Numbered from the stretch's first letter, positions 9,724-29,127 are shown. The stretch: 64,000 nucleotides of DNA from a bacterium (GCA_963663405.2 CAXXSM010000076.1:64001-128000); one strand, 5' to 3'. The notes: generated from the letters alone by a model not told the origin. Program-made: numbers and translations.

Positions 9724-11136
9724 ATGTGGAAAGACGCTTCTAAGAAAATGCTGTTGCTGTCCGGGAAAATCGGCCCGGTCTTCGCTCTGATTCTTGTCAT
9801 CGCGATTTTTGGTTCCATTGAACCGGGGAAATTTTTCAGCTTTCAAAATTTCAGCAATGTGGCTGGACAGACCGCCGTCATCGCGATCGCGGCGATCGGA
9901 ATGACATTCGTCATCGTCAGCGCCGGGATCGATCTCTCCGTTGGCTCGCTCGTAGCTCTCGCAGGCGTTTACGCGACGATGATCATGTCGTCCGATCATC
10001 TTATGTCTCTTGATTATCTTGGGAAATATCTCAACAGTAGCAGCGCGCTGTCATTAGGAATTTTCGTGGGATTGTTAACCGGCGCGGTATGCGGCTTAAT
10101 TAGTGGTGTGGTAATCACGCGCGGCAAACTGGCGCCCTTTATCGTCACGCTGGGGATGATGGAAATCCTCCGCGGCGTCGCGCTCCAATCCGCCGGGGGG
10201 CTTCCCGTAACGAATCTACCCAACAATTTCAGTAAAATCGGCAACGCGGTCTGGTCGATCACGATCAGCCGCAGCCTTGAATTCTCCGAGGATGAACTCA
10301 ATTTTACCGCCCTCTCCAACCGGTTCCGGGATGGAACCGATCCCGCCGCCCAATGCGTCCGGGCGAATTTATCCGATGAAACCAAGACAATGCTGGAGGA
10401 ATATAAAGACGCGCGAGAAATCCCCGATGAGTTGAAAGAGAGTCTAGTTAAAGACCTGAACGCATTCATCCGTTCCGGCCCCATCTATACACCGGAACGC
10501 TTCGAGAACTCCCCCCTGTCCGATCGATTGATGTACAGGATAAACAAAAATCCACAGGGCAATAATCTGATTCATCTTAATCGCCTGATTCTCGAAGACG
10601 CCTACCCGAACTTCATCGAGAAGGGGGACATGATCCTTTTGATCCCTTACCCGCTGTTCATTCTGATCCCACTGGCCTTCCTCGCGGGATTTGTGTTGAA
10701 ATACACAGTCTTCGGAGTGCAGGTCTACGCGGTTGGTTCGAACGAACAAACCGCGCAGCTCTGCGGGGTGAACGTCAACCGGGTGAAAGTGTTGGTCTAC
10801 ATCATTGGAGGGGTAACGGCGGGATTGGCGGGGATCATTCACGCGTCCCGCTTGAACACGGGCCAACCGTCTGAAGCGTTGGGGATGGAATTGGAGGTCA
10901 TCGCAGCGGTCGTCATCGGCGGCGGTAGTTTGATGGGCGGGGAAGGAACGATCCTCGGATCCATCATGGGCGCGTTCATCATTAAATTCCTCCGCAACGG
11001 ATGCAATATCGTAGGCGTCTCCTCCTTCGTCCAACGAATCGTAATCGGCCTCATCATCATCGTCGCCGTCTACATCGATCAACTGAGAAGAAAATCCTTA
11101 GCGCAACAGACAACCGCGAAAGAGACGGAAGACTGA
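9724..11136 (+). CDS. Sugar ABC transporter permease (RbsC-like) with ~120-aa inserted soluble domain
   Basis: GIDLSVGS, PFIVTLG, YAVGSNE..A.LCGV, ELEVIAAVVIGGGSL; extra hydrophilic block at ~10264-10629. Confidence 0.92.
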   Translation: MWKDASKKMLLLSGKIGPVFALILVIAIFGSIEPGKFFSFQNFSNVAGQTAVIAIAAIGMTFVIVSAGIDLSVGSLVALAGVYATMIMSSDHLMSLDYLGKYLNSSSALSLGIFVGLLTGAVCGLISGVVITRGKLAPFIVTLGMMEILRGVALQSAGGLPVTNLPNNFSKIGNAVWSITISRSLEFSEDELNFTALSNRFRDGTDPAAQCVRANLSDETKTMLEEYKDAREIPDELKESLVKDLNAFIRSGPIYTPERFENSPLSDRLMYRINKNPQGNNLIHLNRLILEDAYPNFIEKGDMILLIPYPLFILIPLAFLAGFVLKYTVFGVQVYAVGSNEQTAQLCGVNVNRVKVLVYIIGGVTAGLAGIIHASRLNTGQPSEALGMELEVIAAVVIGGGSLMGGEGTILGSIMGAFIIKFLRNGCNIVGVSSFVQRIVIGLIIIVAVYIDQLRRKSLAQQTTAKETED

Positions 11137-11137
11137 T
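11011..11137 (+). repeat. 127-bp direct repeat, copy 1 (3' end of permease gene)
   Basis: Matches 12075-12201 except one base (GGCCTCATC vs GGCCTAATC). Confidence 0.95.
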
Positions 11138-11253
11138 TTCCACCTCGTATATATGGGTGGCGGGTAAGAACCGGCGTTTACCCCGGAGTATTTACTTTTT
11201 TTGCCCTTGTTGAGAGATACCATCTGTTCGTCTGAACGAAGATAAAAATGTAC

Positions 11254-11282
11254 TTGATAACATATGTATTATTGGCCATAAT
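11254..11282 (+). promoter_or_regulatory. sigma70-like promoter of the TA operon (probably leaderless)
   Basis: TTGATA-17 bp-CATAAT; ATG follows 5 nt after the -10 box and no SD is visible. Confidence 0.5.
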
Positions 11283-11287
11283 TAGAT

Positions 11288-11647
11288 ATGGTATGGGACG
11301 TTATCTTCTTCTCAGAGTTTGTGGATGAGTTCGACAAATTCTCGGACTCCGTCCAAAATGAAATTCTAGCGCACGCGCATTTGCTTGAAGAATTCGGACC
11401 TATGTTGGGCAGACCACGAGTGGATACGCTGAAAGGATCACGTCACTCCAATATGAAGGAATTGCGATTCAATGCAAACAAAGGAGTATGGCGCGCCGCG
11501 TTTGCCTTTGATCCGAAGAGGCGGGCAATCATTTTGTTGGCTGGAGATAAGTCTGGTGTCAGCGAAAAGAGATTTTACAAACAGTTGATTCAAAAAGCTG
11601 ATAGTCGCTTTGATTGTCATTTGGAACAACTGAATCAAGAAGGGTAA
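11288..11647 (+). CDS. Type II TA toxin, RelE/ParE superfamily (Gp49/HigB-like)
   Basis: GP.LGRP.VDTLKGS...NMKELR, WR..FAFDP.R.AI.L..GDKSG. Confidence 0.9.
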   Translation: MVWDVIFFSEFVDEFDKFSDSVQNEILAHAHLLEEFGPMLGRPRVDTLKGSRHSNMKELRFNANKGVWRAAFAFDPKRRAIILLAGDKSGVSEKRFYKQLIQKADSRFDCHLEQLNQEG

Positions 11648-11651
11648 ACAA

Positions 11652-11996
11652 ATGCCTGTAACATTGGAAGATAAAATGAACCAACTCAGTCCTGAGCGCC
11701 GGAAGAAAGTGGAAGAACGGGCGGCTGAACTCATTGCGGAAGAGATGACCCTGCGCGATCTGCGGCGCGCTCATCAATTGACTCAAGAGCGCATAGCGGA
11801 ATCTTTGGGGATCGGTCAGGATGGTGTCTCGCGTCTGGAAAAACGGAGCGATTTGCTAATCTCCACACTGCGCGGCTATATTGAAGCAATGGGAGGCCGC
11901 TTACGTCTGATGGCGGAATTCCCAAACCGGCCAGCCGTCACAATCGGGGGAATTTCAGAAATGGAGAATGAGATAGAAAATCAGGAAACGAGTTAA
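11652..11996 (+). CDS. XRE-family HTH antitoxin (HigA-like)
   Basis: LRDLR...LTQ..IA..LGI.Q..VSRLEKRSDLLISTLR.YIEAMGG; directly downstream of the toxin. Confidence 0.9.
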   Translation: MPVTLEDKMNQLSPERRKKVEERAAELIAEEMTLRDLRRAHQLTQERIAESLGIGQDGVSRLEKRSDLLISTLRGYIEAMGGRLRLMAEFPNRPAVTIGGISEMENEIENQETS

Positions 11997-12074
11997 TGAA
12001 CAAAGACTGTTATCTCTTTGCCTTTGAATCCCTATCAATAAAGCCACATGTCATCCACGCACGCGCCCAGAGAA

Positions 12075-12201
12075 GTAGGCGTCTCCTCCTTCGTCCAACG
12101 AATCGTAATCGGCCTAATCATCATCGTCGCCGTCTACATCGATCAACTGAGAAGAAAATCCTTAGCGCAACAGACAACCGCGAAAGAGACGGAAGACTGA
12201 T
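12075..12201 (+). repeat. 127-bp direct repeat, copy 2 (duplicated permease 3' end)
   Basis: Near-identical to 11011-11137. Confidence 0.95.
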
Positions 12202-12221
12202 GCCACCTGCCATATCAAACA

Positions 12222-12306
12222 GTAGGGTGGGTCACGCTTTATCGACCCACCGCGTATGATTAATCGATTCGGTATTCGGCGCCTCATAAAGACGCGACCA
12301 CCTTAC
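12222..12306. repeat. GTAG-type REP doublet (REPIN-like), family A
   Basis: GTAGGGTGGGTC-ACGCTTTATC-GACCCACC hairpin plus inverted partner ...GACGCGACCACCTTAC. Confidence 0.8.
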
Positions 12307-12390
12307 AGGGCTGAGCCATTCCTTCATCCGCTCCAGCATTTCCCAAATTCATCCCCCAAACCGGCGCTATTTCATCCCCAAAGGCATTCC

Positions 12391-12419
12391 TTGACATTCA
12401 AGGAAATGTATCATAAATT
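12391..12419 (+). promoter_or_regulatory. Putative sigma70 promoter of the FRG gene
   Basis: TTGACA-17 bp-TAAATT upstream of 12487. Confidence 0.4.
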
Positions 12420-12486
12420 CCATAAACCATTTAATAATTTGTTAGGCTACCCGATCACATGAAGTAATAAATACTATTTTATTGCA

Positions 12487-13341
12487 ATGAAACATATCGT
12501 AGGACAAGTATTTACCCATATCAGAGAAAATATTGTAGCATCTTCATTTCACTCAAGCCCTGGGAGTGTGATTGAAAGAAATCTGAAAGGTGTTAGGTCT
12601 ATAACTGCGATAAGAAAAAATGAGGGATACATTGTTCGATCATTCAAAGAACTGGGTTATTTAGTGGCGGAATTGGGATACAATAATCATATGTTTAACT
12701 TACTCTTTAGAGGTCAGATAAATGATCATAAGGATAATAAAGGTCAATCCACTATATATCCATCGATTTACAGACCCTCTTCAACTCGTTTATCTCGAAA
12801 AGCCCTTAGTAAGAGATTTGATATTCTAGAGCGAGACATAAATCTTCTATACAAAGAAAGGGGGAATTTAGGCATACATTCGATATTAATGAATTATAAA
12901 GAATACTATATAGCATTACTTCAACACTATGAACTTTGCAAAACCCCAATGCTTGACCTTACCAATTCATTGCGTGTTGCAGCAAGCTTTGCGCTGCACA
13001 AATCAAGAACAGGATATCTTTTTGTTTTTGGTATGCCCCACCCTCATGGTAGCATATCTCATTATGTGGATGATAGCTTGATGTTAGTGAAACTCCAAAA
13101 TGTATGTCCGCATGGTGCTTTACGGCCTCACTTTCAAGAGGGATATTTAGTTTCTAGACTGCCCTACACTAAATCAAAAGAAGCCGGTGATAATGTTGCG
13201 AGGAGGCTATTAGCAAAATATTATATCGATAATAGAAAAAATACGTTTTGGACTGATGGATTCAATAAAATACCAAGAAAAGCTTTGTTACCTCCAAATG
13301 ATGAATATGAACATAAATTAAAAAAAATATTAGTCATGTAG
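12487..13341 (+). CDS. FRG domain protein
   Basis: LLFRGQ, IYPSIYR, ALLQHYE..TPMLDLT.SL.VA..FA motifs; visibly AT-rich. Confidence 0.85.
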   Translation: MKHIVGQVFTHIRENIVASSFHSSPGSVIERNLKGVRSITAIRKNEGYIVRSFKELGYLVAELGYNNHMFNLLFRGQINDHKDNKGQSTIYPSIYRPSSTRLSRKALSKRFDILERDINLLYKERGNLGIHSILMNYKEYYIALLQHYELCKTPMLDLTNSLRVAASFALHKSRTGYLFVFGMPHPHGSISHYVDDSLMLVKLQNVCPHGALRPHFQEGYLVSRLPYTKSKEAGDNVARRLLAKYYIDNRKNTFWTDGFNKIPRKALLPPNDEYEHKLKKILVM

Positions 13342-13422
13342 GATAGATCACGCTTTATCAATCCACCGCGTATTAATCGTTGCGGTATTCTTCGCCTCAT
13401 AAAAACGCGACCTATGGGGCTG
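13338..13422. repeat. Degenerate direct copy of the 12222-12306 REP doublet, overlapping the FRG stop codon
   Basis: GTAGGATAGATCACGCTTTATCAATCCACCGCGTATTAATCG...CGCCTCATAAAAACGCGACC aligns with 12222-12300. Confidence 0.8.
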
Positions 13423-13508
13423 TATATTGGAATGCTCATTCAATCAAAGTAGTTATGAGGATATCCACAAGCGTATGCGCAATATCAAGAAGAAAGAGGA
13501 TCATGTCC

Positions 13509-14594
13509 ATGAAGAAAATCATTACGAGAAGGCAGATGCTCATGACCACGATAGCCGGCGGATTCGGCGTTATTACCAGCAAGAGCCTCCAGGGAATGGA
13601 GCAAAGTGCAGACTCTGCGGATCCAAGAATCCAAGGACCGTTTCCGATTCTCTCGACGCCTTTCACTTCATCGGGAGCCGTCGATTTTGACGCTCTCGCC
13701 AGATCGGCTCGCTACGTCGACTGGTGTGGGTGTCCGGGCATGATCTGGCCCCAGTCGGGCGATAGCGTCGATCTGCTGACCATCGACGAAAAACTCCAAG
13801 GCATGGAGGTTCTAGCCAAGACGGCGCGCAATCTGCGTACCACGGCGCTCTGCCTTGGTGTCCAGGGTAAAGATACTGACGAAATGCTCGTCTACGCCAG
13901 GCATGCCGAAAAACTGGCCCCGGCGGCGTTCATCTCGAGACCGCCGGATTCGGGAAAGACGGAAGACGACATGCGTCAATACTGGCATGCTCTCGCCTCG
14001 GTCACGAAACGGCCCGTTTTTATCCAGACCACGGGCGGTGTGGCCTACAAGGGACCGACTCCCTCGGTGGAACTCCTGATCGAGTTAGCCAAGGAATTCC
14101 CGAACTTTGGTTACGTCAAAGAGGAAGCGGGAAACGTCATCGCTCGTACCCGTTCCCTGATTGCTGCGAAGCCGCCCATCCGGCGCGTATTCGGCGCCCG
14201 TGGAGGCTTCGGCTGGCTCTACGAATTGCGGCTCGGGGTGGAAGGCCTGATCACCGAACGAGCCATTTACGCCGACGTCCTCACCCGCATCTGGCGCCTT
14301 CATCGGAGCGGCTTGAATCCCGGCGCATTGCGAGACGCGTACAGCAAGTTTCTCCTAATGATCAACCTCGGCAGGACCCATCCCGGCGATTTGCGCGGCT
14401 ACCAGTTGTATCTCTGGAAGAAACGCGGCGTGTTCCAGACGATGGTCTCACGCCAATACGGGCCAGGGCAATCCATCCCGAAGTCGCCCATCTTCTCGGA
14501 ACTGGAATTGACTCAGGACGAGATCGCCGAGATCGAGTTTCGATTCGAGGCGCTCCAGCCGTACCAGAAGCCGGGATCGCCTCAATTCCTATAA
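13509..14594 (+). CDS. Dihydrodipicolinate synthase-family aldolase/lyase with Tat signal
   Basis: TRRQML twin-arginine leader, TPFT..G.VD, YVKEE Schiff-base Lys region; AAGAGGA RBS before 13509. Confidence 0.8.
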   Translation: MKKIITRRQMLMTTIAGGFGVITSKSLQGMEQSADSADPRIQGPFPILSTPFTSSGAVDFDALARSARYVDWCGCPGMIWPQSGDSVDLLTIDEKLQGMEVLAKTARNLRTTALCLGVQGKDTDEMLVYARHAEKLAPAAFISRPPDSGKTEDDMRQYWHALASVTKRPVFIQTTGGVAYKGPTPSVELLIELAKEFPNFGYVKEEAGNVIARTRSLIAAKPPIRRVFGARGGFGWLYELRLGVEGLITERAIYADVLTRIWRLHRSGLNPGALRDAYSKFLLMINLGRTHPGDLRGYQLYLWKKRGVFQTMVSRQYGPGQSIPKSPIFSELELTQDEIAEIEFRFEALQPYQKPGSPQFL

Positions 14595-14660
14595 CTGCTT
14601 CTCTCCGGAAAGAAACAAGGATTAAATTCATCAAAGGTACGTAACGGCCCGTATAGAGAA

Positions 14661-14698
14661 GTCGGGTAGACTAAGAGCGCAGCGTAGGGCGTCATTAC
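14661..14698 (+). repeat. Degenerate REP, family A
   Basis: GTCGGGTAGACTAAGAGCGCAGCGTAGGGCGTCA resembles the copies at 21503 and 23975. Confidence 0.65.
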
Positions 14699-14798
14699 AA
14701 AGTTCTCACATGTCAATTTTAAATACATGCTTGAATCCCACATCACTCCTCACTATCCTATTAAGACAAAGCATCCAAAATAAAATGGAGTATGAAAA

Positions 14799-15071
14799 GT
14801 GAGTGATATCATTATCCATATCCCGGATAAACCGATCGATCCAGGTTTTCTAGCGCAGTTGGAAAAATTCCTGACTCGTTATGAAGCGACTCTTGACAAA
14901 GACGCATGGAATATTCTTAAACAATCACAGAGCAAACAAGAAAACGAAAAGCGGCTCAGCCTTGAGGAGTTTATCAAAGAAACAGAAGCTTTCAGCAAAC
15001 GTGTGGGGCCTCAAAAAACAGATAGCACTGATCTAATTCGTGAAGATCGGGATAGAAATTGGGTTGGCTAA
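14799..15071 (+). CDS. Orphan antitoxin-like protein (VapB/FitA-type C-terminus)
   Basis: C-terminal DSTDLIREDRDR typical of antitoxins of PIN toxins; GGAG RBS; TTGAAT-17-TATCCT at 14731-14759. Confidence 0.55.
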   Translation: MSDIIIHIPDKPIDPGFLAQLEKFLTRYEATLDKDAWNILKQSQSKQENEKRLSLEEFIKETEAFSKRVGPQKTDSTDLIREDRDRNWVG

Positions 15072-15090
15072 ATGCGCAGCGTAGCCCACC
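15061..15090 (+). repeat. REP, family A (contains the stop codon of the preceding ORF)
   Basis: GGGTTGGCTAAATGCGCAGCGTAGCCCACC. Confidence 0.75.
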
Positions 15091-15146
15091 GTTGCGCCTG
15101 CTGCAGCTGCAGAAAAATTTTTTGATAATATGATGGTATTGTAATT

Positions 15147-15341
15147 ATGGATGAATGGATAGAAATCGTTTCATCTACAGATAGGATTGAAGCAGCAGAG
15201 CTGTTTAAAAAGTGGAAGGAAAATAATACATTGTGGAGCAATAGTCTTTCTGATGATGATATCAGGATTGATTCAATTCGTACACTTGATAAACGAACGC
15301 TTACAAGATATCGTGTCAGGAAAATTTCAAATAATGACTAA
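15147..15341 (+). CDS. Small hypothetical protein
   Basis: 64-aa AT-rich ORF filling the space between two REPs. Confidence 0.5.
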   Translation: MDEWIEIVSSTDRIEAAELFKKWKENNTLWSNSLSDDDIRIDSIRTLDKRTLTRYRVRKISNND

Positions 15342-15351
15342 TGCAACGGTA

Positions 15352-15506
15352 TAGAAGATGGGCAGAAAGCGTAGCGCAGGGCGCCAAAAATACTGATTTT
15401 TGAACCACGGATTTCATGGAAAAAGCGCGGAGTCCACGGATTATTTTCCGTGTAATCTATCTCTATCCGAATTATCCGTGATTCAAACAAAAGAAGATCC
15501 ATTGAC
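15352..15506 (+). repeat. Composite repeat (family A REP + CACGGAT/ATCCGTG family B), copy 1
   Basis: Aligns with 16336-16491 including GAACCACGGATTTCATGGAAAAAGCGCGGAGTCCACGGATT and ATCCGTGATTCAAACAAAAGAAGATC. Confidence 0.9.
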
Positions 15507-15526
15507 AATGTAGCCCGCCATTACGA

Positions 15527-16324
15527 CTACAAATCCAAAAATTCCTGCAACCCTGGTTTTCCATAAACCGCCCCACCGGTTTTAACAATGAGATTATTCT
15601 GCATTTCTACAATTCCTTCCCCATGCGTATGCCCACATAAAACTAACATTTCTTTTTGGGGATATTTCAACATAAATTCCTGAAGCGCTATTCCAACCGC
15701 TTTACAACTGAAATGGGGCAGAAAATTCTCATCGCTGATTCGCCCTTCATACCAACAGGCTTCCTGGAACGGGGGAACATGCGTCAACACAATCACTTTG
15801 CGATATCGATCGATTGTTAAAGGTAAGTTACTTCGAAAAAATTCCGCCGCTTCATCCCCCAGTGTGTTTAATAAAGAGAGACGATCGGCTGAATTAAGAC
15901 CAACAAATTCCTGAATATGAATGTAGTCATTCAAGAGGACCTTACTTTTTTCATAATTCCCAAAACGCCCATCCGCCCATGAGCCATGACCGATTAAACA
16001 AGTATCTTCACACAAAGGAACAACGCCCTGTTGAGGCAGCCATCGCAGGTTGGAGAAGTATGCTGTGCGCTCCAGCAGTTCCCGCCGAACATGAGCGATC
16101 GATCCAAAATAATAATCATGATTTCCCAAAACGAAAAATGTGGGTACAGGAAAATAGGAATCCAACAGTTGTAAGTCAGAGAGCAATCTCGGCGCTGTCG
16201 ATAGATCCCCACCAATTAAAATGCAGTCCGGCGAATGAGACAAAATCATCTCACAAAACGATTCAATCCCGGCGTCGTCAATATGATCAAGATGGATATC
16301 CGTCAGCCAAGCCACTTTTTTCAT
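15527..16324 (-). CDS. Calcineurin-like metallophosphoesterase (Icc/CpdA-like)
   Basis: TDIH, GGD, GNHD, THVPP, GHTH metal-binding motifs. Confidence 0.9.
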   Translation of the reverse strand: MKKVAWLTDIHLDHIDDAGIESFCEMILSHSPDCILIGGDLSTAPRLLSDLQLLDSYFPVPTFFVLGNHDYYFGSIAHVRRELLERTAYFSNLRWLPQQGVVPLCEDTCLIGHGSWADGRFGNYEKSKVLLNDYIHIQEFVGLNSADRLSLLNTLGDEAAEFFRSNLPLTIDRYRKVIVLTHVPPFQEACWYEGRISDENFLPHFSCKAVGIALQEFMLKYPQKEMLVLCGHTHGEGIVEMQNNLIVKTGGAVYGKPGLQEFLDL

Positions 16325-16335
16325 GCTATTAGTCC

Positions 16336-16491
16336 GTAGGATGAGCTAAAAGCGTAGCGCAGCCCATCAAAATTACTGCATTTTGAACCACGGATTTCAT
16401 GGAAAAAGCGCGGAGTCCACGGATTTTTTTTTCCGTGAATTCCGCGGTAATCCGAGTCATCCGTGATTCAAACAAAAGAAGATCTATTGAC
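16336..16491 (+). repeat. Composite repeat (family A + B), copy 2
   Basis: GTAGGATGAGCTAAAAGCGTAGCGCAGCCCATC followed by the same family B block as 15352-15506. Confidence 0.9.
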
Positions 16492-16531
16492 TAAGGTTCA
16501 ATCAATCCGTACGCAATTCCTTCTTTAGAAG

Positions 16532-16562
16532 GTAAGGGTGGATCGCGCATTGATGACCCATC
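16532..16562 (+). repeat. Degenerate REP, family A
   Basis: GTAAGGGTGGATCGCGCATTGATGACCCATC resembles the copies at 12222 and 63222. Confidence 0.6.
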
Positions 16563-16641
16563 GTTTCAATGGATTATCAGCGATTTTATGGTAAAGAGAG
16601 AACTCTCTGTCAAGAAGATATAACTATCACTCAAAAGGAAT

Positions 16642-16983
16642 TTATAAATTACCTTTCCTCCATTCGGATAATGTCATCTCTGCGCTTAGTGAAATTATAC
16701 CCTTTTGTTTTTGTATTTCTTCGAGAGTTTTTACTGCCTTTTCCTCATTATATTTAAGCGAGTGACATGCAGACCAACATCGCACACTATCATTTTCATC
16801 GTCGGTTAAAGATAGCAAAGCTTCGTTACCTTCATCACCATATTCTTTGATTCTATTTAATGCTATCATCAGCTTATCGTAACATTTGTTCCCTACTTTG
16901 TAATTGCCCTCTTTTATTGTGTCACCATGCTTTGCCGCATTGAGTTTATATTCATCAATCAATTCCTCGATTTCTTTATTCAT
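16642..16983 (-). CDS. DUF2019-like helical protein (immunity-like)
   Basis: AAKHG....G.YK..NK.Y...LL.L..DEN..VR.W.A...L...A..TL.EWRKG pattern, recognised from memory as DUF2019. Confidence 0.6.
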   Translation of the reverse strand: MNKEIEELIDEYKLNAAKHGDTIKEGNYKVGNKCYDKLMIALNRIKEYGDEGNEALLSLTDDENDSVRCWSACHSLKYNEEKAVKTLEEIQKQKGIISLSAEMTLSEWRKGNL

Positions 16984-17025
16984 TTTCCACCCCCAAATTC
17001 TTATATATTTAACTTCAACACATGA

Positions 17026-17229
17026 CTATTCGGCATACTCGATCTCTTCACCAGATACAACAATCTGGGCAACTGTCTCTCCTGTTTCCGGATTAGAAAA
17101 ATCGATTTCATACTCAAACGGTCCATCACCATAAATTTCAATAATAATTCCAATTGCGCCTTCACTGGCGCCTTCGCTGGAATAGTTATCAGAAAGAAGT
17201 TTCACACGGGAATACTGTTTAAAATTCAT
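17026..17229 (-). CDS. DUF4926 domain protein
   Basis: V.LL......G...GAIG.IIEIY....YEIDFS...GETVA pattern. Confidence 0.7.
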   Translation of the reverse strand: MNFKQYSRVKLLSDNYSSEGASEGAIGIIIEIYGDGPFEYEIDFSNPETGETVAQIVVSGEEIEYAE

Positions 17230-17262
17230 AATTGTAAATTCACAAATCGGAGTTTTATCTAT

Positions 17263-18657
17263 TCAATCCTCCGCCCGTTCCCCCTCCGGCGCCATTTTCA
17301 CAATTCGCGGGTGGAACACCGCCAGCGGTTCAACGAGATCGGACTGCGCCGACATAATCTCATCGATATTTTTGTACGCCATCGGCGCTTCATCCAAACC
17401 CGCGCTCAGCACCGTCACATCCCGTTCCGCCAGAATTTTCTTGACCTGTGACCAGGTAAAACTCTCTTTCGCCTTCCGGCGGCTCATCAGGCGGCCCGCT
17501 CCATGTGAGGCTGAATGAAGCGACGCCGGATTCCCTTTCCCCCGGACGACGTAGGCCGGCGACGCCATTGAACCGGGAATGATCCCCAACACCCCTCGTC
17601 CCGCCGGGGTCGCGCCTTTCCGGTGTACGATCACAGTTTCTCCACCACGATCCTCTTTCCACGCGAAATTATGGTGATTCTCAATACTCAATAGCGCTTT
17701 CGTTCCAAGCGCTTTGGCGATGTGATAGTGGATCAATTCATGATTGGCTGCGGCGTATTTGCCCATCAACCGCATCGCTTCCCAATACTCCATGCCTTCT
17801 CCGCTGTCCAGATCGAGCCAGGAAAGATGCGCCAATTCCTTCGGCAGTTCGGGCCGCCGGTTCATTGCAAGTCCGCTGTAATACCCCGCCACCTTCGAAC
17901 CCGGCCCCCGGCTTCCACTATGACTCAAGAGCGCGAGATACGTTCCAGGAGGCGCCTCTAAATCCTCGGATTGCACTTCTAGAACGCCATACTCAACAAA
18001 ATGGTTCCCGCTCCCGCTCGTTCCCAGCTGCGCCCACGCTTTATCTTTGATTTGCTTCGTCACGGACGTCACGCCCCAGTCTTCATCCATCACCGAATGC
18101 GCTCGCCGATTCTTGAATTCCGCCCCGATTCCAAACCGGGTCTCCTGTTCTAATACTTTCTTCAACCGGTCAACGGCGCCGGTGAGTGATTGGGGCGGCA
18201 TGTCAAACGCGGTCAACCGCATCCGGCAGGCGATATCCACCCCAACCGCGTACGGAATCACCGCGTTGCGAACCGCCAGCACCCCCCCGATCGGAAGCCC
18301 GTATCCAAGATGCGCGTCCGGCATCAACGCGCCCGCGACGGAGACCGGCAGCTGACAGGCGCGCTCCATCTGCTGGATCGACGCTTCGTCCAAGTTATCA
18401 CCCCACTGTTGATATGGCGCCGAGATTTCCCGGTATTGATATTCCTGCCTCTTTCCTTTGCTAAGAAGCGAATTGGCGAACGTTCCAAAATACGGCTCTT
18501 CGGCGTAGGTCTGTGGATTCGCCAACACCGCGCGCATGGTTTTCCGGATTTCTTCTTTGTTCATCCCCGCTTTGGAGGCCTTGCTGATTGCCCCCAGCGC
18601 CATCTCCAAAGGTTTTCCCTTTGGAATCCCCAACTTGATCAATTCTCGTTTTTTCAT
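17263..18657 (-). CDS. rtcB: RtcB family RNA ligase
   Basis: MPDAHLGYGLPIGG, VGVDIAC, GTSGSGNHF, HSGSRG, NHHNFA, HRKGATP, PGSM, SHGAGR, DEAP.AYK. Confidence 0.95.
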   Translation of the reverse strand: MKKRELIKLGIPKGKPLEMALGAISKASKAGMNKEEIRKTMRAVLANPQTYAEEPYFGTFANSLLSKGKRQEYQYREISAPYQQWGDNLDEASIQQMERACQLPVSVAGALMPDAHLGYGLPIGGVLAVRNAVIPYAVGVDIACRMRLTAFDMPPQSLTGAVDRLKKVLEQETRFGIGAEFKNRRAHSVMDEDWGVTSVTKQIKDKAWAQLGTSGSGNHFVEYGVLEVQSEDLEAPPGTYLALLSHSGSRGPGSKVAGYYSGLAMNRRPELPKELAHLSWLDLDSGEGMEYWEAMRLMGKYAAANHELIHYHIAKALGTKALLSIENHHNFAWKEDRGGETVIVHRKGATPAGRGVLGIIPGSMASPAYVVRGKGNPASLHSASHGAGRLMSRRKAKESFTWSQVKKILAERDVTVLSAGLDEAPMAYKNIDEIMSAQSDLVEPLAVFHPRIVKMAPEGERAED

Positions 18658-20047: not shown

Positions 20048-20084
20048 GGGTAGCAAAGGCAAGGTTTATCATCTGCCTTTGCCT
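20048..20084 (+). repeat. Palindromic repeat family C
   Basis: GGGTAGCAAAGGCAAGG...TCTGCCTTTGCC, homologous to 31648, 38345, 41866 and 45400. Confidence 0.65.
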
Positions 20085-20198
20085 TATTCCGAACCACATT
20101 TGAATAGTGGAATAACTGGTAATCCTCTGTAGAGATCGTTAATAATAATTCATAAAAATAAATTCAATCCTTAACAGCCGCATAGAAAGGATATTCTG

Positions 20199-21485
20199 AT
20201 GAAACCAATGAAACGCCGCACGTTTTTAGGAGCCGCCGCTGGATCGGCGGCGATGATGAATACAATCTATGGAACCGCCGCGGAACGAAAACTCAAAATG
20301 GGGGTGATTGGCTGCGGTTGGTATGGTATGGTCGACACCGAAGCGGCCTTCCGCGTGGGGGGCGTTGAAGTAATCGCTATTTGTGACGTAGACACCGAAC
20401 ATCTCAATAAAAGCGCAGATGATATTGAGAAAGAGCAGGGAACACGACCGAAAACATTCAAACACTATCAAGAACTTCTCGATACGCCCGGTTTGGAAGC
20501 GGTCATTATCGCCACACCCCCCCAATGGCACGCGCTCCCTTTCATCGCGGCATGCGAAAAAGGGCTGGATATCTACTGCGAAAAACCGGTCGCCTACGAT
20601 ATCCGCGAAGGCCGCGCAATGGTGGACGCGGCGAAAAAATCAGGACGTGTCATCCAAATCGGTTTTCAGCGCCGCCAAAGCAGCGCCGTAAAAGCGGCGA
20701 AACAATTCATCCAAGAAGAATCCTTGGGTAAAGTCGTCCAAGTCGACGCCCAGATTCACTATACAGCGAAAATAGAGGATACTACTCCTCAAAAACCACC
20801 CGCCTCCTTAGACTGGGATCTATGGTGCGGGCCTGGACCCAAAATTCCGTATTGCCCCCAGGTCGGGCATTACGCCTGGCGCCTGGAAGCGGCGTATGGA
20901 AACGGTCATCTCGTCGACTGGGGAATCCACTTAATCGACGCCACCCGCGTCATTCTTGGAGAAAGCGTCCCTCATCACATCCAATCCGCCGGTGGAATCT
21001 ACTATCTAAAAGATAAAATCACAACGCCCGATACACTTACCGCCCATTTCGATTTCAATCGCTGCCCGGTCACTTGGCGTCATCGTCTGTGGGGAGCGGT
21101 CGAATACAATCCCGAAGTGAACAATGGAATCTTCTTCTTCTGCGAAAAAGGAACCGTCTTCGTCACCGACCGCCAATGGATCATCATTCCGGGTGGAAAG
21201 GAAGCGGAAAAGAAAGTGATGCCAACTGAAGGAAAAGAAGATATGGCCGCGCTCCACATGGCTGATTTTCTCAAAGCCGTCCAAACCCGGCAAACCCCCT
21301 CCTGCCCAATCGAGGACGCGTTCCAATCCACATCAACAGTACAACTCGGTATGATCGCCTATCACGCCGGCGAAAAAATAGCCTACGACGCCCAAAAAGA
21401 ACAAATCCTAGGCAATCCCCTCGCCGCCAAACTCCTCAAACGAGAATACCGCGCCCCTTACACACATCCTTATCAAGAAGGATAA
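20199..21485 (+). CDS. Gfo/Idh/MocA oxidoreductase with Tat signal
   Basis: KRRTFL leader, GVIGCGWYG, IATPPQWH, CEKP, DWGIHLID. Confidence 0.92.
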   Translation: MKPMKRRTFLGAAAGSAAMMNTIYGTAAERKLKMGVIGCGWYGMVDTEAAFRVGGVEVIAICDVDTEHLNKSADDIEKEQGTRPKTFKHYQELLDTPGLEAVIIATPPQWHALPFIAACEKGLDIYCEKPVAYDIREGRAMVDAAKKSGRVIQIGFQRRQSSAVKAAKQFIQEESLGKVVQVDAQIHYTAKIEDTTPQKPPASLDWDLWCGPGPKIPYCPQVGHYAWRLEAAYGNGHLVDWGIHLIDATRVILGESVPHHIQSAGGIYYLKDKITTPDTLTAHFDFNRCPVTWRHRLWGAVEYNPEVNNGIFFFCEKGTVFVTDRQWIIIPGGKEAEKKVMPTEGKEDMAALHMADFLKAVQTRQTPSCPIEDAFQSTSTVQLGMIAYHAGEKIAYDAQKEQILGNPLAAKLLKREYRAPYTHPYQEG

Positions 21486-21502
21486 CCACGGATTGAAACT
21501 GG

Positions 21503-21738
21503 GTAGGGTGGGCTAAAAGCGAAGCGTAGCCCACCATAATCGATTATCAATCTATTCAGTTTCGTAGAAGAATCTTAAAGCGGATTGTGTCTGTTTATAA
21601 CATTATAAATGTATAATGCTATAAAAATCCATGCAATCAAACACTATACTGCGTAAAATAACTTACATTTACAACGGTTGATGAAGGCGTTGCGGTTATT
21701 GTAAAGGTGGGCTACGCTGCGCTTTTAGCCCACCCTAC
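21503..21738. repeat. 236-bp REPIN-like element (inverted GTAG REPs + AT-rich spacer), copy 1
   Basis: Left GTAGGGTGGGCTAAAAGCGAAGCGTAGCCCACC; right GGTGGGCTACGCTGCGCTTTTAGCCCACCCTAC. Confidence 0.92.
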
Positions 21739-22141
21739 TCGACTATTCGACTAAATCCGTTTTGATGACTGTGTTTCGTACTCTCAAACGGTGAGGCTAT
21801 AATCCAATCCAGACACTCGTCTCGGCTCTCAGCGATTTTATTCTAACCGAAAAATTGCCCCCTTTCCCACCCGTTATCACTTCACATGACTGACCTGATA
21901 CGTATAATGAACTTTCTGACATGCTCGCTCTCCTTTTTCTAACTTTAACCGGTTAGGAGAGTTAAGCCTGTCCTCACTTTTTTTGAAGTTTTTAACCCAA
22001 TTTCCGGATGAACCAGAAAATGCTTGATTCATCATTGGATCTTTGTTAGATTGGGACGAGGTCAATTAGAAAGGAGGATTCTTTTCGTTACGGTTTGATT
22101 TTTAATCAGTTTAGTGAAAATTTCTTAGGGAGAAAAGTATT

Positions 22142-23104
22142 ATGAATAAGTTTTTTGTAATGATTCTATTGAGTTGTTTTTGTTTACCCGTCATGGCTCA
22201 GATTGAAGACTTTGATGAACAAACCGAAGGGCCTTGGTCGGATATCGATAACACCACGATTACCATTTTTAACGTGCCATCGATTACCTTAGATGGTGAG
22301 ATTTCCGCTGATGAATATGGTGGATTTGAAGGAATAGAAGTGATTCCCGTTGAGACAGGATGGGTTTTGAACTATGCCACCGAAAAGAATTGGGAAGGTC
22401 CGGATGATTCAAGTTTTACATTCTATGTGGCGTATGATGATACCTTTTTATATGTCGCTCTCGATGTGAAAGATGATGTGGTTCGTTCCAATGATGAAAA
22501 TGCGGCATTCTGGAAAGATGATGCGGTTGAAATTGTTTTTGGACCGGAAAATAACCGCTATGATATCAATACCGACGGATCGACAAACCTAGTAGGTGGT
22601 CACGTTTATTTCAACTGGGAAGGACGTTTTTCAGAATGGGATGAAGCATCCAGTCTTCCTCGCGATGCGGTTCGATTTGCCGCCGGTTTAGATTGGGCCT
22701 ATGGGGAAGACGCTGAAGTGTATGGCGTTGGTATTGAAACCGAAACCGGTTGGGCATTGGAAACCAGAATTCACAAAATGTGTTTCGAAGATGAAGACTT
22801 GGGAACATCTATGGTCGAAGGTGAAGTGTGGGATTTCAATGTGGGTCTCGATGATGATGATGGTGGCGATTTAGCGGTTCAGTATTGGTGGGCAAGCCGT
22901 GTTTTCGCAGATGGATTCAGCCCTGATAATGAATTTTTTGATTTGTTGTTGGATGAAGAAATTGAAACACAGGCTTATCTGGATCCGGAAAATGAAGCCG
23001 CTTTTTGGCCGTTGATCCTGGCTCAACCGTTGGGGTATGCATCTTGCGGAGAACTAATTTTTGGACCGCAATCAGCACCCGTGATCGAGTGGGCCGTGTA
23101 TTGA
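22142..23104 (+). CDS. Secreted CBM9/DOMON-like sugar-binding protein with C-terminal WxxY motif
   Basis: Signal peptide; ITLDG, YVAYDDTFLYVALDVKDD, W.DDAVEI, GW..E.RI, FNVGLDDDD; ends APVIEWAVY. Confidence 0.7.
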   Translation: MNKFFVMILLSCFCLPVMAQIEDFDEQTEGPWSDIDNTTITIFNVPSITLDGEISADEYGGFEGIEVIPVETGWVLNYATEKNWEGPDDSSFTFYVAYDDTFLYVALDVKDDVVRSNDENAAFWKDDAVEIVFGPENNRYDINTDGSTNLVGGHVYFNWEGRFSEWDEASSLPRDAVRFAAGLDWAYGEDAEVYGVGIETETGWALETRIHKMCFEDEDLGTSMVEGEVWDFNVGLDDDDGGDLAVQYWWASRVFADGFSPDNEFFDLLLDEEIETQAYLDPENEAAFWPLILAQPLGYASCGELIFGPQSAPVIEWAVY

Positions 23105-23134
23105 CATAATTTCGAGAGAGATATTTTTATTAAA

Positions 23135-23167
23135 AAAACGGCGGGTTGTCGAATGGCCCGCCGTTTT
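23135..23167 (+). terminator. Intrinsic terminator
   Basis: AAAACGGCGGG-loop-CCCGCCGTTTT downstream of the stop at 23104. Confidence 0.75.
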
Positions 23168-23181
23168 GCATGACTAGTTAC

Positions 23182-23417
23182 GTAGGGTGGGCTAAAAGCA
23201 CAGCACAGCCCACCCTAATCGATTATCAATTTATTCAATTTCGTAGAATAATCTAAAAGCGGTTTGTGTCTGTTTACAACATGATAAATTTATAATGCTA
23301 TAAAAGCCCATGCAATCAAACAATATACTGCGTAAAATAACTTACATTTACAACGGTCGATGAAGGCATTGCGGTTATTGTAAAGGTGGGCTACGCTTCG
23401 CTTTTAGCCCACCCTAC
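23182..23417. repeat. 236-bp REPIN-like element, copy 2
   Basis: Same length and colinear spacer as 21503-21738. Confidence 0.92.
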
Positions 23418-23421
23418 TTGG

Positions 23422-23523
23422 CTGCGTAAAATAACTTACATTTACAACGGTTGATGAAGGCGTTGCGGATATAGTGTTTAACAATGTAATGGCGCCCAAC
23501 GCTTCACTCTTAGCCTACCCTAC
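23422..23523. repeat. Partial third REPIN (right half)
   Basis: Repeats CTGCGTAAAATAACTTACATTTACAACGG...GATGAAGGC and ends in CTTAGCCTACCCTAC. Confidence 0.85.
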
Positions 23524-23527
23524 TCGA

Positions 23528-23923
23528 TTACTCGACTTTCAAGTTAATATCAAAACCATAAGCGTTTTTAAAATATTCAACATATTCTTCACCTGCTGCT
23601 GATAGTACTCCTCTATTCCACCATTCTTTATTATTTGATAAATGATAATGATTGTGAAGCAAGCGTTTAAACCTTCTATCAATGTCTTGAACCGTACTAA
23701 TAAATGAACTATGTTCCTGAAAGGTCATAAGTTCGGGATTTGTGAGAATTTCTTCCAATTCATTTCGCACATGAATTTCATTATTGTACTCGCTAACATC
23801 CCAACTATAGCCTTCTTCACAATCTTCAACAAATCCTAACCAGCAAGTTATAAGCTCGGGAAGGTCTCTTGATATATTCAAATTTTTGATGAACTTCCTT
23901 CTCGTATCAAAATAATTTGCCAT
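23528..23923 (-). CDS. Hypothetical protein, immunity-like
   Basis: AT-rich 131 aa with W..FV..CE.GY....EY.N...R and WW..G.L pattern; flanked by REPINs. Confidence 0.6.
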   Translation of the reverse strand: MANYFDTRRKFIKNLNISRDLPELITCWLGFVEDCEEGYSWDVSEYNNEIHVRNELEEILTNPELMTFQEHSSFISTVQDIDRRFKRLLHNHYHLSNNKEWWNRGVLSAAGEEYVEYFKNAYGFDINLKVE

Positions 23924-23974
23924 TTTTATCCCTTGCTAAAACTAATTATTAAAATATTCCAATACTATAGTTGC

Positions 23975-24168
23975 GTAAGGTGAAGAGCGCAGCGTAGGGC
24001 GCCATAATCAATTATCTATCGAATCAGTTTCGCAGGATGATCTAAAAACGAATTGCCGCCTGCTTGCAACATAACAAACAATATACATTACAGAACTTAC
24101 ATTTACAACGGTCGATGAAGGCGATGCGGATAGAGTAAAGGTGGGCTACGCTTTGCTCTTAGCCCTAC
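23975..24168. repeat. Diverged REPIN-like element, copy 4
   Basis: GTAAGGTGAAGAGCGCAGCGTAGGGCGCC...ACTTACATTTACAACGGTCGATGAAGGC...GGTGGGCTACGCTTTGCTCTTAGCCCTAC. Confidence 0.85.
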
Positions 24169-28960: not shown

Positions 28961-29033
28961 TGGAGCTGACCGGGATCGAACCGGTGACCTTCGGCTTGCA
29001 AAGCCGACGTTCTCCCAGCTGAACTACAGCCCC
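28961..29033 (-). tRNA. tRNA-Ala(UGC), CCA not encoded
   Basis: GGGGCTGTAGTTCAGCTGGGAGAACGTCGGCTTTGCAAGCCGAAGGTCACCGGTTCGATCCCGGTCAGCTCCA. Confidence 0.96.
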
Positions 29034-29051
29034 GCCCATCGATTTAAAATC

Positions 29052-29127
29052 TGGGCCTGACAGGAGTTGAACCTGTGACCTTTCGCTTATCAGGCGAACG
29101 CTCTAACCGCAGCTGAGCTACAGGCCC
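29052..29127 (-). tRNA. tRNA-Ile(GAU), CCA not encoded
   Basis: GGGCCTGTAGCTCAGCTGCGGTTAGAGCGTTCGCCTGATAAGCGAAAGGTCACAGGTTCAACTCCTGTCAGGCCCA. Confidence 0.96.

Follow-up and report, generated by a model that had tools for sequence, protein, structure and literature searches.

The locus lies in a 64,000-nucleotide stretch of bacterial DNA, referred to here as the window (GCA_963663405.2 CAXXSM010000076.1:64001-128000; contig C76). Genes at 11011-17262 were assigned by ORF search and Pfam, and the content between the sugar-ABC operon and rtcB was as the earlier note had listed it, the DUF2019 match falling below its cut-off. The genes, their flanks and a direct repeat are as follows:

9724..11136, + strand: ABC-transporter permease gene (ORF), the conserved left flank of the islet
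11011..11137, no strand: first copy of the direct repeat, covering the final 126 nt of the permease gene and a single nt past its stop
11288..11647, + strand: HigB-like toxin (Gp49/PF05973; Pfam 78.7 bits), promoter-like site at 11254-11282
11652..11996, + strand: HTH (XRE-type) antitoxin (Pfam HTH_3, HTH_31, HTH_37)
12075..12201, no strand: second copy of the direct repeat, duplicating the permease 3' end at a displaced position
12487..13341, + strand: FRG-domain protein, candidate defence gene (Pfam FRG 37 bits; GC 35%)
13500..14594, + strand: DHDPS-family aldolase-like protein (Pfam PF00701 26.5 bits; GC about 60%)
14799..15071, + strand: orf90, orphan VapB-like antitoxin (tblastn to homologues in genomes G001 and G012)
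15147..15341, + strand: orf64, a 64-aa ORF (ORF search)
15527..16324, - strand: calcineurin-like metallophosphoesterase (Pfam PF00149 49.9 bits)
16642..16983, - strand: DUF2019-like protein, weak match (Pfam 18.4 bits, cut-off 23.3; GC 35%)
17026..17229, - strand: DUF4926 protein (Pfam 36.2 bits)
17263..18657, - strand: RtcB RNA ligase, the right flank (Pfam 277 bits)

This islet lies at a synteny break between the ABC-transporter operon and rtcB, and its genes were probably acquired separately. In relatives, rtcB sits on contigs different from the ABC operon; the permease of six family-level relatives is 61-70% identical over its first segment and 73-79% over its C-terminal segments. GC is 33-45% over most of 11150-13400 and 14600-17300, the genome standing at about 47%. 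With this low GC, and with an FRG homologue in none of the 19 other genomes of the family, the islet genes look acquired. The FRG gene matches PADLOC PDC-S15 (E 9e-10), and the DHDPS-family protein carries an N-terminal RR motif, TRRQML, read by eye as a putative Tat signal. No match was found for orf64 in Pfam, NCBIfam or PADLOC, nor for 10500-18000 in an Rfam scan. The absence of an integrase, already remarked upon in the earlier note, holds for contig C76: all 49 PF00589 matches in the genome are on other contigs. The claim that several genes have their own sigma70-like promoters fared less well, since nine promoter-like sites were found versus 12.5 +/- 3.8 in shuffled sequence, although two are well placed, 5' of HigB and 5' of FRG.

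The direct repeat around HigBA measures 127 nt (99% identity), brackets 937 nt, and is found in the whole genome as these two copies only. The earlier text does not mention it. HigB and HigA are the sole genes between the copies, with no mobility gene, and what brackets them is a duplicated permease gene end, not REPs. This layout fits "insertion with long target duplication", as described by Furuta et al. 2010 (PMC2853133). The repeats being 99% alike, HigBA is the youngest insertion in the islet. A ParE cassette on contig C67 is likewise bracketed, the duplicated gene end there being 383 nt long, and low-GC genes on contigs C145 and C111 show the same duplicate-bracketed layout. The HigBA insert with both 127-nt repeats is also present in run X2, one related strain from another study for which contigs only were used; the relatives compared belong to other genera.

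The palindromes between the genes were scored by a local sensitive nhmmer search with family HMMs. The seven hairpins announced in the earlier note are real but uneven, four being strong, two weak and one, at 15357, degenerate (E 0.16). Two GTAG-headed REP families, T1 and T2, account for them, and a MITE-like repeat accompanies these:

12222..12310, + strand: A1, T1 REP doublet (REPIN-like; nhmmer 72 bits as doublet, 41.7 bits as unit)
13338..13425, + strand: A2, T1 REP doublet (nhmmer 29.5 bits)
14664..14687, + strand: B1, degenerate T2 REP (nhmmer 11.1 bits, local E 6e-4)
15057..15090, + strand: B2, T2 REP (nhmmer 27.6 bits)
15357..15379, + strand: head of composite repeat C1, a degenerate T2 REP (nhmmer 3.5 bits, E 0.16)
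15399..15488, no strand: copy of the 90-nt palindromic MITE-like repeat ("Ctail") within C1 (nhmmer 71 bits, both strands)
16336..16369, + strand: T2 REP heading composite repeat C2 (nhmmer 33.3 bits)
16382..16473, no strand: MITE-like repeat, copy in C2 (nhmmer 74.7 bits)
16535..16560, + strand: D, weak T1-like hairpin (nhmmer 12.3 bits, local E 1e-3)

A1 consists of a GTAG-headed hairpin (12222-12254, -16.5 kcal) followed by a degenerate inverted unit. The GTAG of A2 contains the TAG stop of FRG, and the last codons and TAA stop of orf90 lie within an arm of B2, whose head in the window is mutated from GTAG to ATTG; the REP head at 16533 is mutated as well. Hairpins were said to touch or contain the stop codon often, and two of the seven contain one. 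They were also placed at nearly every junction; a REP is present at 6 of the 10 from permease to rtcB. All seven REPs have the same orientation. B1 resembles a copy at window position 23975. The T2 head of C1 is not significant alone, and its layout is the same as that at 16336-16473. Among 40 full-length T1 copies the nearest relative of A2 is A1, and the MITE copies of C1 and C2 are reciprocal nearest relatives among 25; this kinship suggests that these copies may have arisen by local copying rather than by independent arrivals. Long target duplication finds no support as a source of the REP pairs, since the C1/C2 likeness stops short of unique DNA. This likeness lies wholly inside a composite repeat subfamily with further members on contigs C71 and C125.

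Genome-wide, nhmmer matches numbered 78 for T1, 74 for T2, 82 for the MITE (both strands counted) and 230 for a further family, RY; 41 T1 and 28 T2 copies have at most 3 mismatches. Of 421 merged repeat loci, 315 are intergenic by crude ORF calls. The islet holds 6 merged loci in 6.3 kb, where one per 19.5 kb, the genome average, would give about 0.3, and about ten places in the genome are equally dense. Both consensus sequences start with GTAG followed by a stem-loop, and among 20 genomes of the family the T2 core was found in 16 and T1 in 5 (reversed-pattern control, 0). An intact RAYT gene is encoded on contig C36 (G000:C36:98501-98953; NF047646, 187.5 bits; 240-aa ORF) with the motifs HLH (PDHLHVL) and YxxxNPV (YIHYNPV), the HUH motif and the catalytic Tyr motif, so that the enzyme in trans supposed in the earlier note exists. 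The expectation that it would be flanked by the same repeats was borne out for T2, inverted copies of which lie on either side (locus L069, 1338-1371 on the - strand and 2044-2078 on the + strand), as they do around the RAYTs of G009 and G003, from two other genera. It was not borne out for T1: no T1-flanked RAYT was found in this 82%-complete genome, and among the genomes T1 adjoins a RAYT in G008 only. The islet palindromes are thus ordinary members of a known REP/RAYT system, because an intact RAYT sits within inverted T2 copies and T2 is present in 16 of 20 genomes. The identification of the hairpins as RAYT-type GTAG REPs agrees with T1/T2 membership; the claim of a new system is not supported, the repeats being of the known REP/RAYT type.

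These results bear directly on the idea of a decayed integron array (CALIN), in which the palindromes would be remnant attC sites of an array that has lost its integrase. Mostly single genes between imperfect palindromes, toxin-antitoxin genes among them, on a contig without an integrase, are what such an array would look like. However, attC sites have a GTTRRRY-type core and an R''-L''...L'-R' layout, and no GTTRRRY-type core was seen when the sequences were read by eye. Moreover, the palindromes are genome-wide families that flank RAYT genes, 3 of the 9 islet genes are on the opposite strand, and the same repeats bracket ordinary genes elsewhere. We consider this origin hardly credible.

If REPs gathered foreign genes, low-GC genes should be enriched between direct copies, as the earlier note proposed. 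Genes with GC<0.40 made up 11 of 39 REP-bracketed genes versus 656 of 6866 (OR 3.7, p 8e-4), and the excess persisted when gaps of at least 60 nt (9/30 vs 208/2341) or at least 100 nt (7/26 vs 135/1548) were required on both sides. It was, however, equal in inverted (5/16) and direct (8/33) pairs. Short inter-REP segments were also enriched for low GC (18/80 vs 7.6%). The effect is confined to a low-GC tail, in that neither median GC nor length sets REP-bracketed genes apart from the others (p 0.11 and 0.85) and 28 of the 39 have GC of at least 0.40. Runs of 4-5 consecutive REP-bearing junctions occur on contigs C132, C35 and C39 and in the window at about 20 kb; those on C132 and C35 contain cupin, DUF4185, HAD, aminotransferase, pterin-binding (folP-like), DUF2298 and PhzF genes. 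The annotated runs thus hold housekeeping-type genes, and the layout is not specific to cargo. In Pseudomonas, acquired DNA is reported to be a "REP desert" (PMC3390384); this genome is the opposite, with low-GC genes enriched between REPs.

The enrichment can be set against a purely passive view, in which REPs land and persist in intergenic DNA that is non-essential and weakly expressed, with no role in the gain or loss of genes. With REPs at 6 of 10 junctions any whole-gene indel would border one, and borders would fall near REPs because every islet spacer holds one. No low-GC excess is seen in genes that adjoin a REP on just one side (44/451 vs 656/6866), A1 is nearer a copy on contig C132 (91%) than A2 (79.5%), and the confinement of the C1/C2 likeness to its subfamily, with no unique flanking DNA duplicated, points the same way. 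Pure chance placement, though, would not give the low-GC enrichment of REP-bracketed genes and inter-REP segments, and that of two-sided genes survives the gap control. We regard passivity as a real but minority possibility, and two breaks located at B2 weigh further against it.

The first of these concerns orf90. In G001 and G012, homologues of orf90 are followed by an overlapping PIN-toxin-like start that is missing here, which confirms its description as an orphan antitoxin. The truncated antitoxin gene has lost its toxin and runs into B2, so that the orf90-REP fusion marks a break located precisely at a REP, a rearrangement junction. No REPs were found beside the orf90 homologues in relatives. 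The second comes from run X2, in which one contig departs from the window at precisely the G of the A1 GTAG, and another, whose GTAG head is canonical and whose left flank differs, joins it at the B2 5' arm; B2 is common to both strains while its left neighbour differs. The window-specific block therefore spans REP head to REP head. A third contig has 922 extra letters between two MITE copies. Borders of strain differences lie at REPs, as the earlier note had expected, in the one strain compared. Depth is 3.6-3.8 in the left part and 2.8-2.9 in the right, which makes X2 linkage uncertain. The X2 contigs do not cover 12208-13427 and 14648-14891; because a hole in contig cover proves nothing, FRG and orf90 were not counted as absent. 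An X2 copy of the aldolase-like gene, 90% identical, at depth 7.9 and with other flanks, was taken to come from another organism or place. A 14-letter piece of an X2 loose end matched the inside of an ORF on contig C29 exactly and was judged a chance match. Strain-level relatives were sought through the phosphoesterase in metagenome contigs (best 51% identity) and in genome contigs, where FRG had no match and the permease one, at 51%.

Sharp X2 borders of this kind, at the first base of GTAG in A1 and at the B2 5' arm, would be compatible too with site-specific cleavage at the REP, as would follow if RAYT drove cassette exchange: a gene between like-oriented REPs would be excised as single-stranded DNA at the GTAG heads and rejoined at another REP, REPs acting like attC sites and RAYT like an integrase in trans. 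IS200/IS605 elements have left and right ends of like orientation, and all seven islet REPs are likewise co-oriented; the genome has an intact cognate RAYT, and low-GC genes are enriched among REP-bracketed genes. E. coli RAYT, moreover, cuts single-stranded REP DNA at its GTAG motif according to PMC3733652. The enrichment is nevertheless no weaker for inverted pairs than for direct ones, and HigBA, the youngest insertion, involves no REP. No second copy of any islet gene was found in the genome, orf90 having distant relatives only (33-59% identity), and other REP clusters of the genome contain no islet-gene paralogues. (The 265-aa gene between MITE copies on contig C42 is a SASA esterase and not a phosphoesterase paralogue.) None of 45 phosphoesterase-homologue loci carries T1, T2, RY or the MITE, and REPIN duplication is very slow according to bioRxiv 10.1101/2024.07.17.603846. 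The X2 contigs, which are blind to rare circles, contain no circle junction, the 922-letter case being the only joint. Taken together, these data make RAYT-driven exchange quite unlikely. A broader proposal, that REPs are preferred gain/loss junctions for foreign genes in this lineage and that REP-to-REP segments are exchanged as modules through RAYT nicking at the GTAG head or REP-REP recombination, we consider unlikely. Equal enrichment in inverted pairs, ordinary genes in other runs, HigBA bracketed without REPs, cargo homologues elsewhere without these repeats, and a C1/C2 likeness that reflects a composite subfamily all speak against REPs as capture sites.

We therefore favour, as the probable explanation, a small strain-variable islet in which the palindromes are ordinary REP and MITE copies, without dedicated capture machinery. 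T1, T2 and the MITE would have spread through the genome and its relatives and be maintained by a RAYT encoded elsewhere. Genes would enter and leave by general routes, one being insertion with long target duplication, as for HigBA; a second may be RecA-dependent or illegitimate recombination that breaks preferentially at dispersed repeats and hairpins, so that REPs would come to border gained or lost segments, at times supplying stop codons. We infer that recombination at REPs, not RAYT chemistry, makes the strain borders. Three findings count against this explanation: the low-GC enrichment between REPs, the sharp X2 borders, and the kinship of A2 with A1 and of the C1 and C2 MITE copies.

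The REP/RAYT families and MITE of this uncultured lineage join a well-described class and add little new. The roughly 3.7-fold over-representation of low-GC orphan genes among REP-bracketed genes bears on the long-open question of what benefit REPs bring to their hosts. REP-to-REP exchange, if true, would explain this over-representation and make REP/RAYT a single-strand, HUH-based counterpart of the integron. With integron arrays and CALINs the islet shares single-gene units, imperfect palindromes, toxin-antitoxin cargo and a proposed enzyme in trans; it differs in having REPs and not attC sites, genes in both orientations and no intI, and its repeats are genome-wide and bracket ordinary genes too. 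In IS200/IS605 elements an HUH/Y1 enzyme acts on like-oriented subterminal hairpins of one strand, to our knowledge the only known chemistry able to move a REP-gene-REP unit. Compared with such elements carrying passenger genes, here RAYT lies outside the unit and no unit has a second copy; no defined target tetranucleotide or guide sequence, features of IS200/IS605, was identified for the islet units.

Insertion with long target duplication was reportedly recognised by Nobusato et al. in 2000. Shared with it are a small addictive module without a mobility gene (HigBA; ParE on C67) and a long direct duplication overlapping the 3' end of the neighbouring gene (127 and 383 nt), and HigBA has the direct repeat of more than 30 bp and insert of less than 20 kb that characterise it. 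In PMC2853133 the route is described for restriction-modification systems, whereas the cargo here is toxin-antitoxin genes; the repeat would have been single-copy before HigBA inserted. For the repeats, GTAG REP/REPIN families with their RAYT (REPtrons) are said to have been described by Bertels and Rainey in 2011 (PMC3116915). Di Nocera et al. 2013 (PMC3733652) record GTAG REPs in Planctomycetes/PVC and note that REP termini often supply the TAG stop of flanking ORFs, and T1/T2-like families might already be in the supplementary REP lists of that paper. The GTAG head beside a hairpin and the TAG stop from a REP terminus are shared with that system. So are a copy number of tens to hundreds, mainly between genes and arranged singly, in inverted doublets or in tandem arrays, the single-copy RAYT gene between inverted copies, and the family-wide conservation. 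The repeats themselves show no difference from it, and the local feature is their concentration in a low-GC acquired islet.

The source genome (8.44 Mb in 170 contigs, 47% GC, 82% complete) carries an islet between an ABC-transporter permease gene and rtcB, with the following content:

9724-11136, plus strand: ABC-transporter permease gene, left flank of the islet
Islet: HigB/Gp49-like toxin and HTH antitoxin pair (HigBA)
Islet: FRG-domain gene, GC 35%
Islet: DHDPS-family gene, GC about 60%
Islet: 90-aa ORF (orf90) and 64-aa ORF
Islet, minus strand: metallophosphoesterase gene
Islet, minus strand: DUF2019, a weak match
Islet, minus strand: DUF4926 gene
17263-18657, minus strand: rtcB, right flank of the islet

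In PADLOC, the FRG protein hits PDC-S15, a candidate defence family (E 9e-10). The earlier note, which described single-gene cassettes punctuated by hairpins with no integrase, was largely right in its observations: the genes and hairpins are there, and of the 49 tyrosine-recombinase matches in the genome, none falls on the window's contig, C76. A 238-aa tyrosine-recombinase frame occurs, with identical scores, in at least 14 places in the genome (for example C6:9926-10405 and C27:7333-7812), none on C76; this multicopy gene looks like an active IS-like element. There are no tRNA genes within the islet, the closest being a minus-strand tRNA-Ala and tRNA-Ile pair at 28961-29127, probably in an rRNA-operon spacer.

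Family profiles were built from genome-wide matches and then run against the islet region alone. In this region-only search, the sites at 12222 and 13338 that flank the FRG gene (A1 and A2) belong to family T1, with 41.7 and 29.5 bits, and those at 15061 (B2) and 16336 (C2) to family T2, with 27.6 and 33.3 bits. The sites at 14664 (B1; T2, 11.1 bits) and 16535 (T1-like, 12.3 bits) are weak yet locally significant, and the one at 15357 (C1; 3.5 bits) is recognisable only through the composite layout that it has in common with 16336. All seven hairpins proposed from the sequence are real, though of unequal quality (3.5-41.7 bits), and all 7/7 heads point in the same direction. The T1 sites are REPIN-like doublets of ~78-88 nt, in which a GTAG-headed hairpin is joined to a degenerate inverted unit, and a palindromic 90-nt MITE-like repeat follows both 15357 and 16336. 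Hairpins had been placed at nearly every junction, often with the stop codon; they occupy 6/10 junctions, and the stop codon lies inside 2/7 of them, a stop supplied within the repeat being usual for GTAG REPs according to PMC3733652. Several genes had been proposed to have their own promoters; promoter-like sites in the islet were not above chance (9 versus 12.5 +/- 3.8). In a frequent variant of T1 and T2, one arm (GGTGGG or CCCACC) is changed to the self-complementary GGCGCC, so that a single hairpin cannot form; examples are C36:45227, C69:4345, window 14664 and 15357, among many T1 and T2 copies in the genome.

Across the genome, nhmmer matches numbered 78 for T1, 74 for T2, 82 for the MITE (both strands counted) and 230 for RY, a third GTAG REP family, and 315 of the 421 merged repeat loci were intergenic by crude ORF calls. 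RY also forms tandem arrays with periods of ~110 nt and ~48 nt (C24:15943-16260, C24:18081-18444 and C114:13686-13911). Two genes for the REP-associated transposase RAYT were found, one on C71 (NF047646, 110 bits) with RY copies on its flanks and one on C36 (187.5 bits) whose frame is open, contains HLH and YxxxNPV motifs and has inverted T2 copies on its flanks. A third PF01797 gene, on C38, is not a RAYT but an IS200 transposase. T2 likewise flanks orthologous RAYTs in two other genera (G009 and G003), and T1 adjoins one RAYT ortholog in G008. With up to 3 mismatches, the T2 core was present in 16/20 family genomes and the T1 core in 5/20, while a reversed-pattern control gave 0 throughout. 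T1, T2 and RY are therefore bona fide REP/RAYT families of an already described kind; as PMC3733652 indicates, GTAG families of this type are known, the PVC group included.

The islet holds 6 merged repeat loci in 6.3 kb, compared with a genome mean of one per 19.5 kb. REP density is patchy across the whole genome, with 3.6% of junctions occupied, and runs of 4-5 consecutive REP-occupied junctions were also seen on C132, C35, C39 and at ~20 kb of the window. If junctions were occupied independently, ~0.01 such runs would be expected by our own arithmetic. The genes in the C132 and C35 runs are ordinary ones (cupin, DUF4185, HAD hydrolase, aminotransferase, pterin-binding folP-like, DUF2298 and PhzF). 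A second REP cluster in the window, at 20048-24165, contains ~235-nt elements bounded at each end by inverted T2 REPs. They lie between three genes, one oxidoreductase-like, one of 320 aa and one a low-GC ORF of 131 aa that belongs to no family:

21503-21738: ~235-nt element
23182-23417: ~235-nt element
23420-23525: ~235-nt element, partial
23975-24165: ~235-nt element

Median GC did not differ between REP-bracketed genes and the rest. In the low tail, GC was below 0.40, a threshold picked after the data had been seen, for 11/39 genes bracketed by REPs on both sides versus 656/6866 without REP (OR 3.7, p 8e-4); one of these 11 is itself a RAYT gene and 3 are on C76. Most of the bracketed genes with low GC lack a Pfam family. 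The excess persisted when both gaps had to be at least 60 nt or at least 100 nt long, and faded at gaps of at least 150 nt (4/20 versus 83/914, p 0.11). Likewise, 18/80 inter-REP segments of 300-3000 nt were low-GC, versus 7.6% of random segments. The predicted enrichment between direct copies was thus present as an excess in the low tail, but inverted pairs showed it equally (5/16, against 8/33 for direct pairs). That REPs were placed purely passively is possible but rather unlikely.

On either side of HigBA lies one copy of a 127-nt direct repeat (99%; 11011-11137 and 12075-12201), which consists of the permease gene's last 126 nt plus one base, the distal copy being a displaced fragment. 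A genome-wide scan for local direct repeats found a similar arrangement on C67, where the last part of a 1003-aa gene is duplicated over 383 nt (97%), once more ending one base past the stop. The two copies bracket a ParE toxin gene, and a second Gp49/HTH pair adjoins this cassette:

C67:20548-20930: first copy of the 383-nt repeat
C67:21683-22065: second copy of the 383-nt repeat

The layout recurs on C145, where three low-GC genes are enclosed by a duplicated gene end of 172 nt, and on C111, where two low-GC ORFs are enclosed by a repeat of 161 nt.

Only two sequencing runs hold the stretch, both as contigs: X1, with 0.90 of sampled words present, which may be the source sample, and X2, a related strain from another study. 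HigBA with both 127-nt repeats is present in X2 (6 differences in 1023 letters). One X2 contig continues 21 letters past the repeat and then departs from the window precisely at the G that opens A1's GTAG. A second X2 contig enters the window at 15066, inside B2; its GTAG head is canonical and its left flank differs. A third, of 2059 letters, holds a MITE-like piece, 922 other letters and then 15366-16409, so that an additional segment lies between two MITE copies. Divergence was 0.6-0.7% for the permease gene and HigBA, 7.5% for 15066-15426, 1.5% for the phosphoesterase gene and 4.9% for 16385-17800. Depth differs between the left part (3.6-3.8) and the right part (2.8-2.9), so the two may come from different genomes. 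No circle junctions appeared in these data, which as contigs would not reveal them. The expected strain differences at repeats were seen at A1, in B2 and between MITEs, but in one comparison strain, in contigs whose linkage is uncertain. X2 also holds a 90%-identical match to the aldolase-like gene (window 13632-14588) on a 3009-letter contig with different depth and flanks, so this gene is also in another organism or place in that sample.

A break at a REP is also visible in the window. The orf90 product is a VapB-like antitoxin with 48% identity over residues 28-85 to homologues in two family genomes (G001 and G012), where a PIN-toxin-like start overlaps the end of the antitoxin gene. In the window the toxin is gone, and the frame enters B2 and ends at a TAA in its arm; orf90/B2 is a rearrangement junction that coincides exactly with a REP. 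Regarding the REP pairs, the nearest relative of A2 among 40 other full-length T1 doublets is A1 (79.5%); A1 itself is closest to a copy on C132 (91%) and has A2 in fifth place. Within a set of 25, the MITE copy of C1 is closest to that of C2 and vice versa, though with a margin of only 85% versus 83%. The likeness between C1 and C2 is confined to a composite subfamily, built of a T2 head, a spacer, the MITE and a tail, that is also found on C71 and C125, and no unique DNA is duplicated alongside them. There is thus a hint that the islet pairs may be local copies.

FRG relatives were absent from the 19 other family genomes and from a wider genome-contig collection, no T1, T2, RY or MITE was found near phosphoesterase homologues (0/45 loci, 336 kb), and the islet genes have no second copies in the genome, only orf90 having distant relatives (33-59% identity). 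Thus, these comparisons give no sign of islet genes travelling with the REPs. The suggestion that the REPs are integron-like capture sites was not borne out, given the equal enrichment in inverted and direct pairs, the ordinary genes in other runs and the homologues without REPs. Several findings argue against a mechanism that is site-specific and depends on orientation. Gene exchange driven by RAYT appears improbable. REPs are genuinely associated with low-GC orphan genes and with strain-difference borders, probably for the most part because recombination breaks at dispersed repeats and at hairpins in dispensable DNA.

PMC3390384 reports acquired DNA in Pseudomonas as a 'REP desert'; the present genome is the opposite, with low-GC genes in excess between REPs. 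PMC2853133 describes 'insertion with long target duplication' for restriction-modification systems, with 46-423-bp repeats, some of them overlapping a gene's 3' end, and no mobility genes. Within the excerpts of the literature retrieved, none reported toxin-antitoxin cassettes so inserted. The layout of HigBA and of the C67 ParE cassette matches that system, and the HigBA bracketing is evidence for a REP-independent insertion route.
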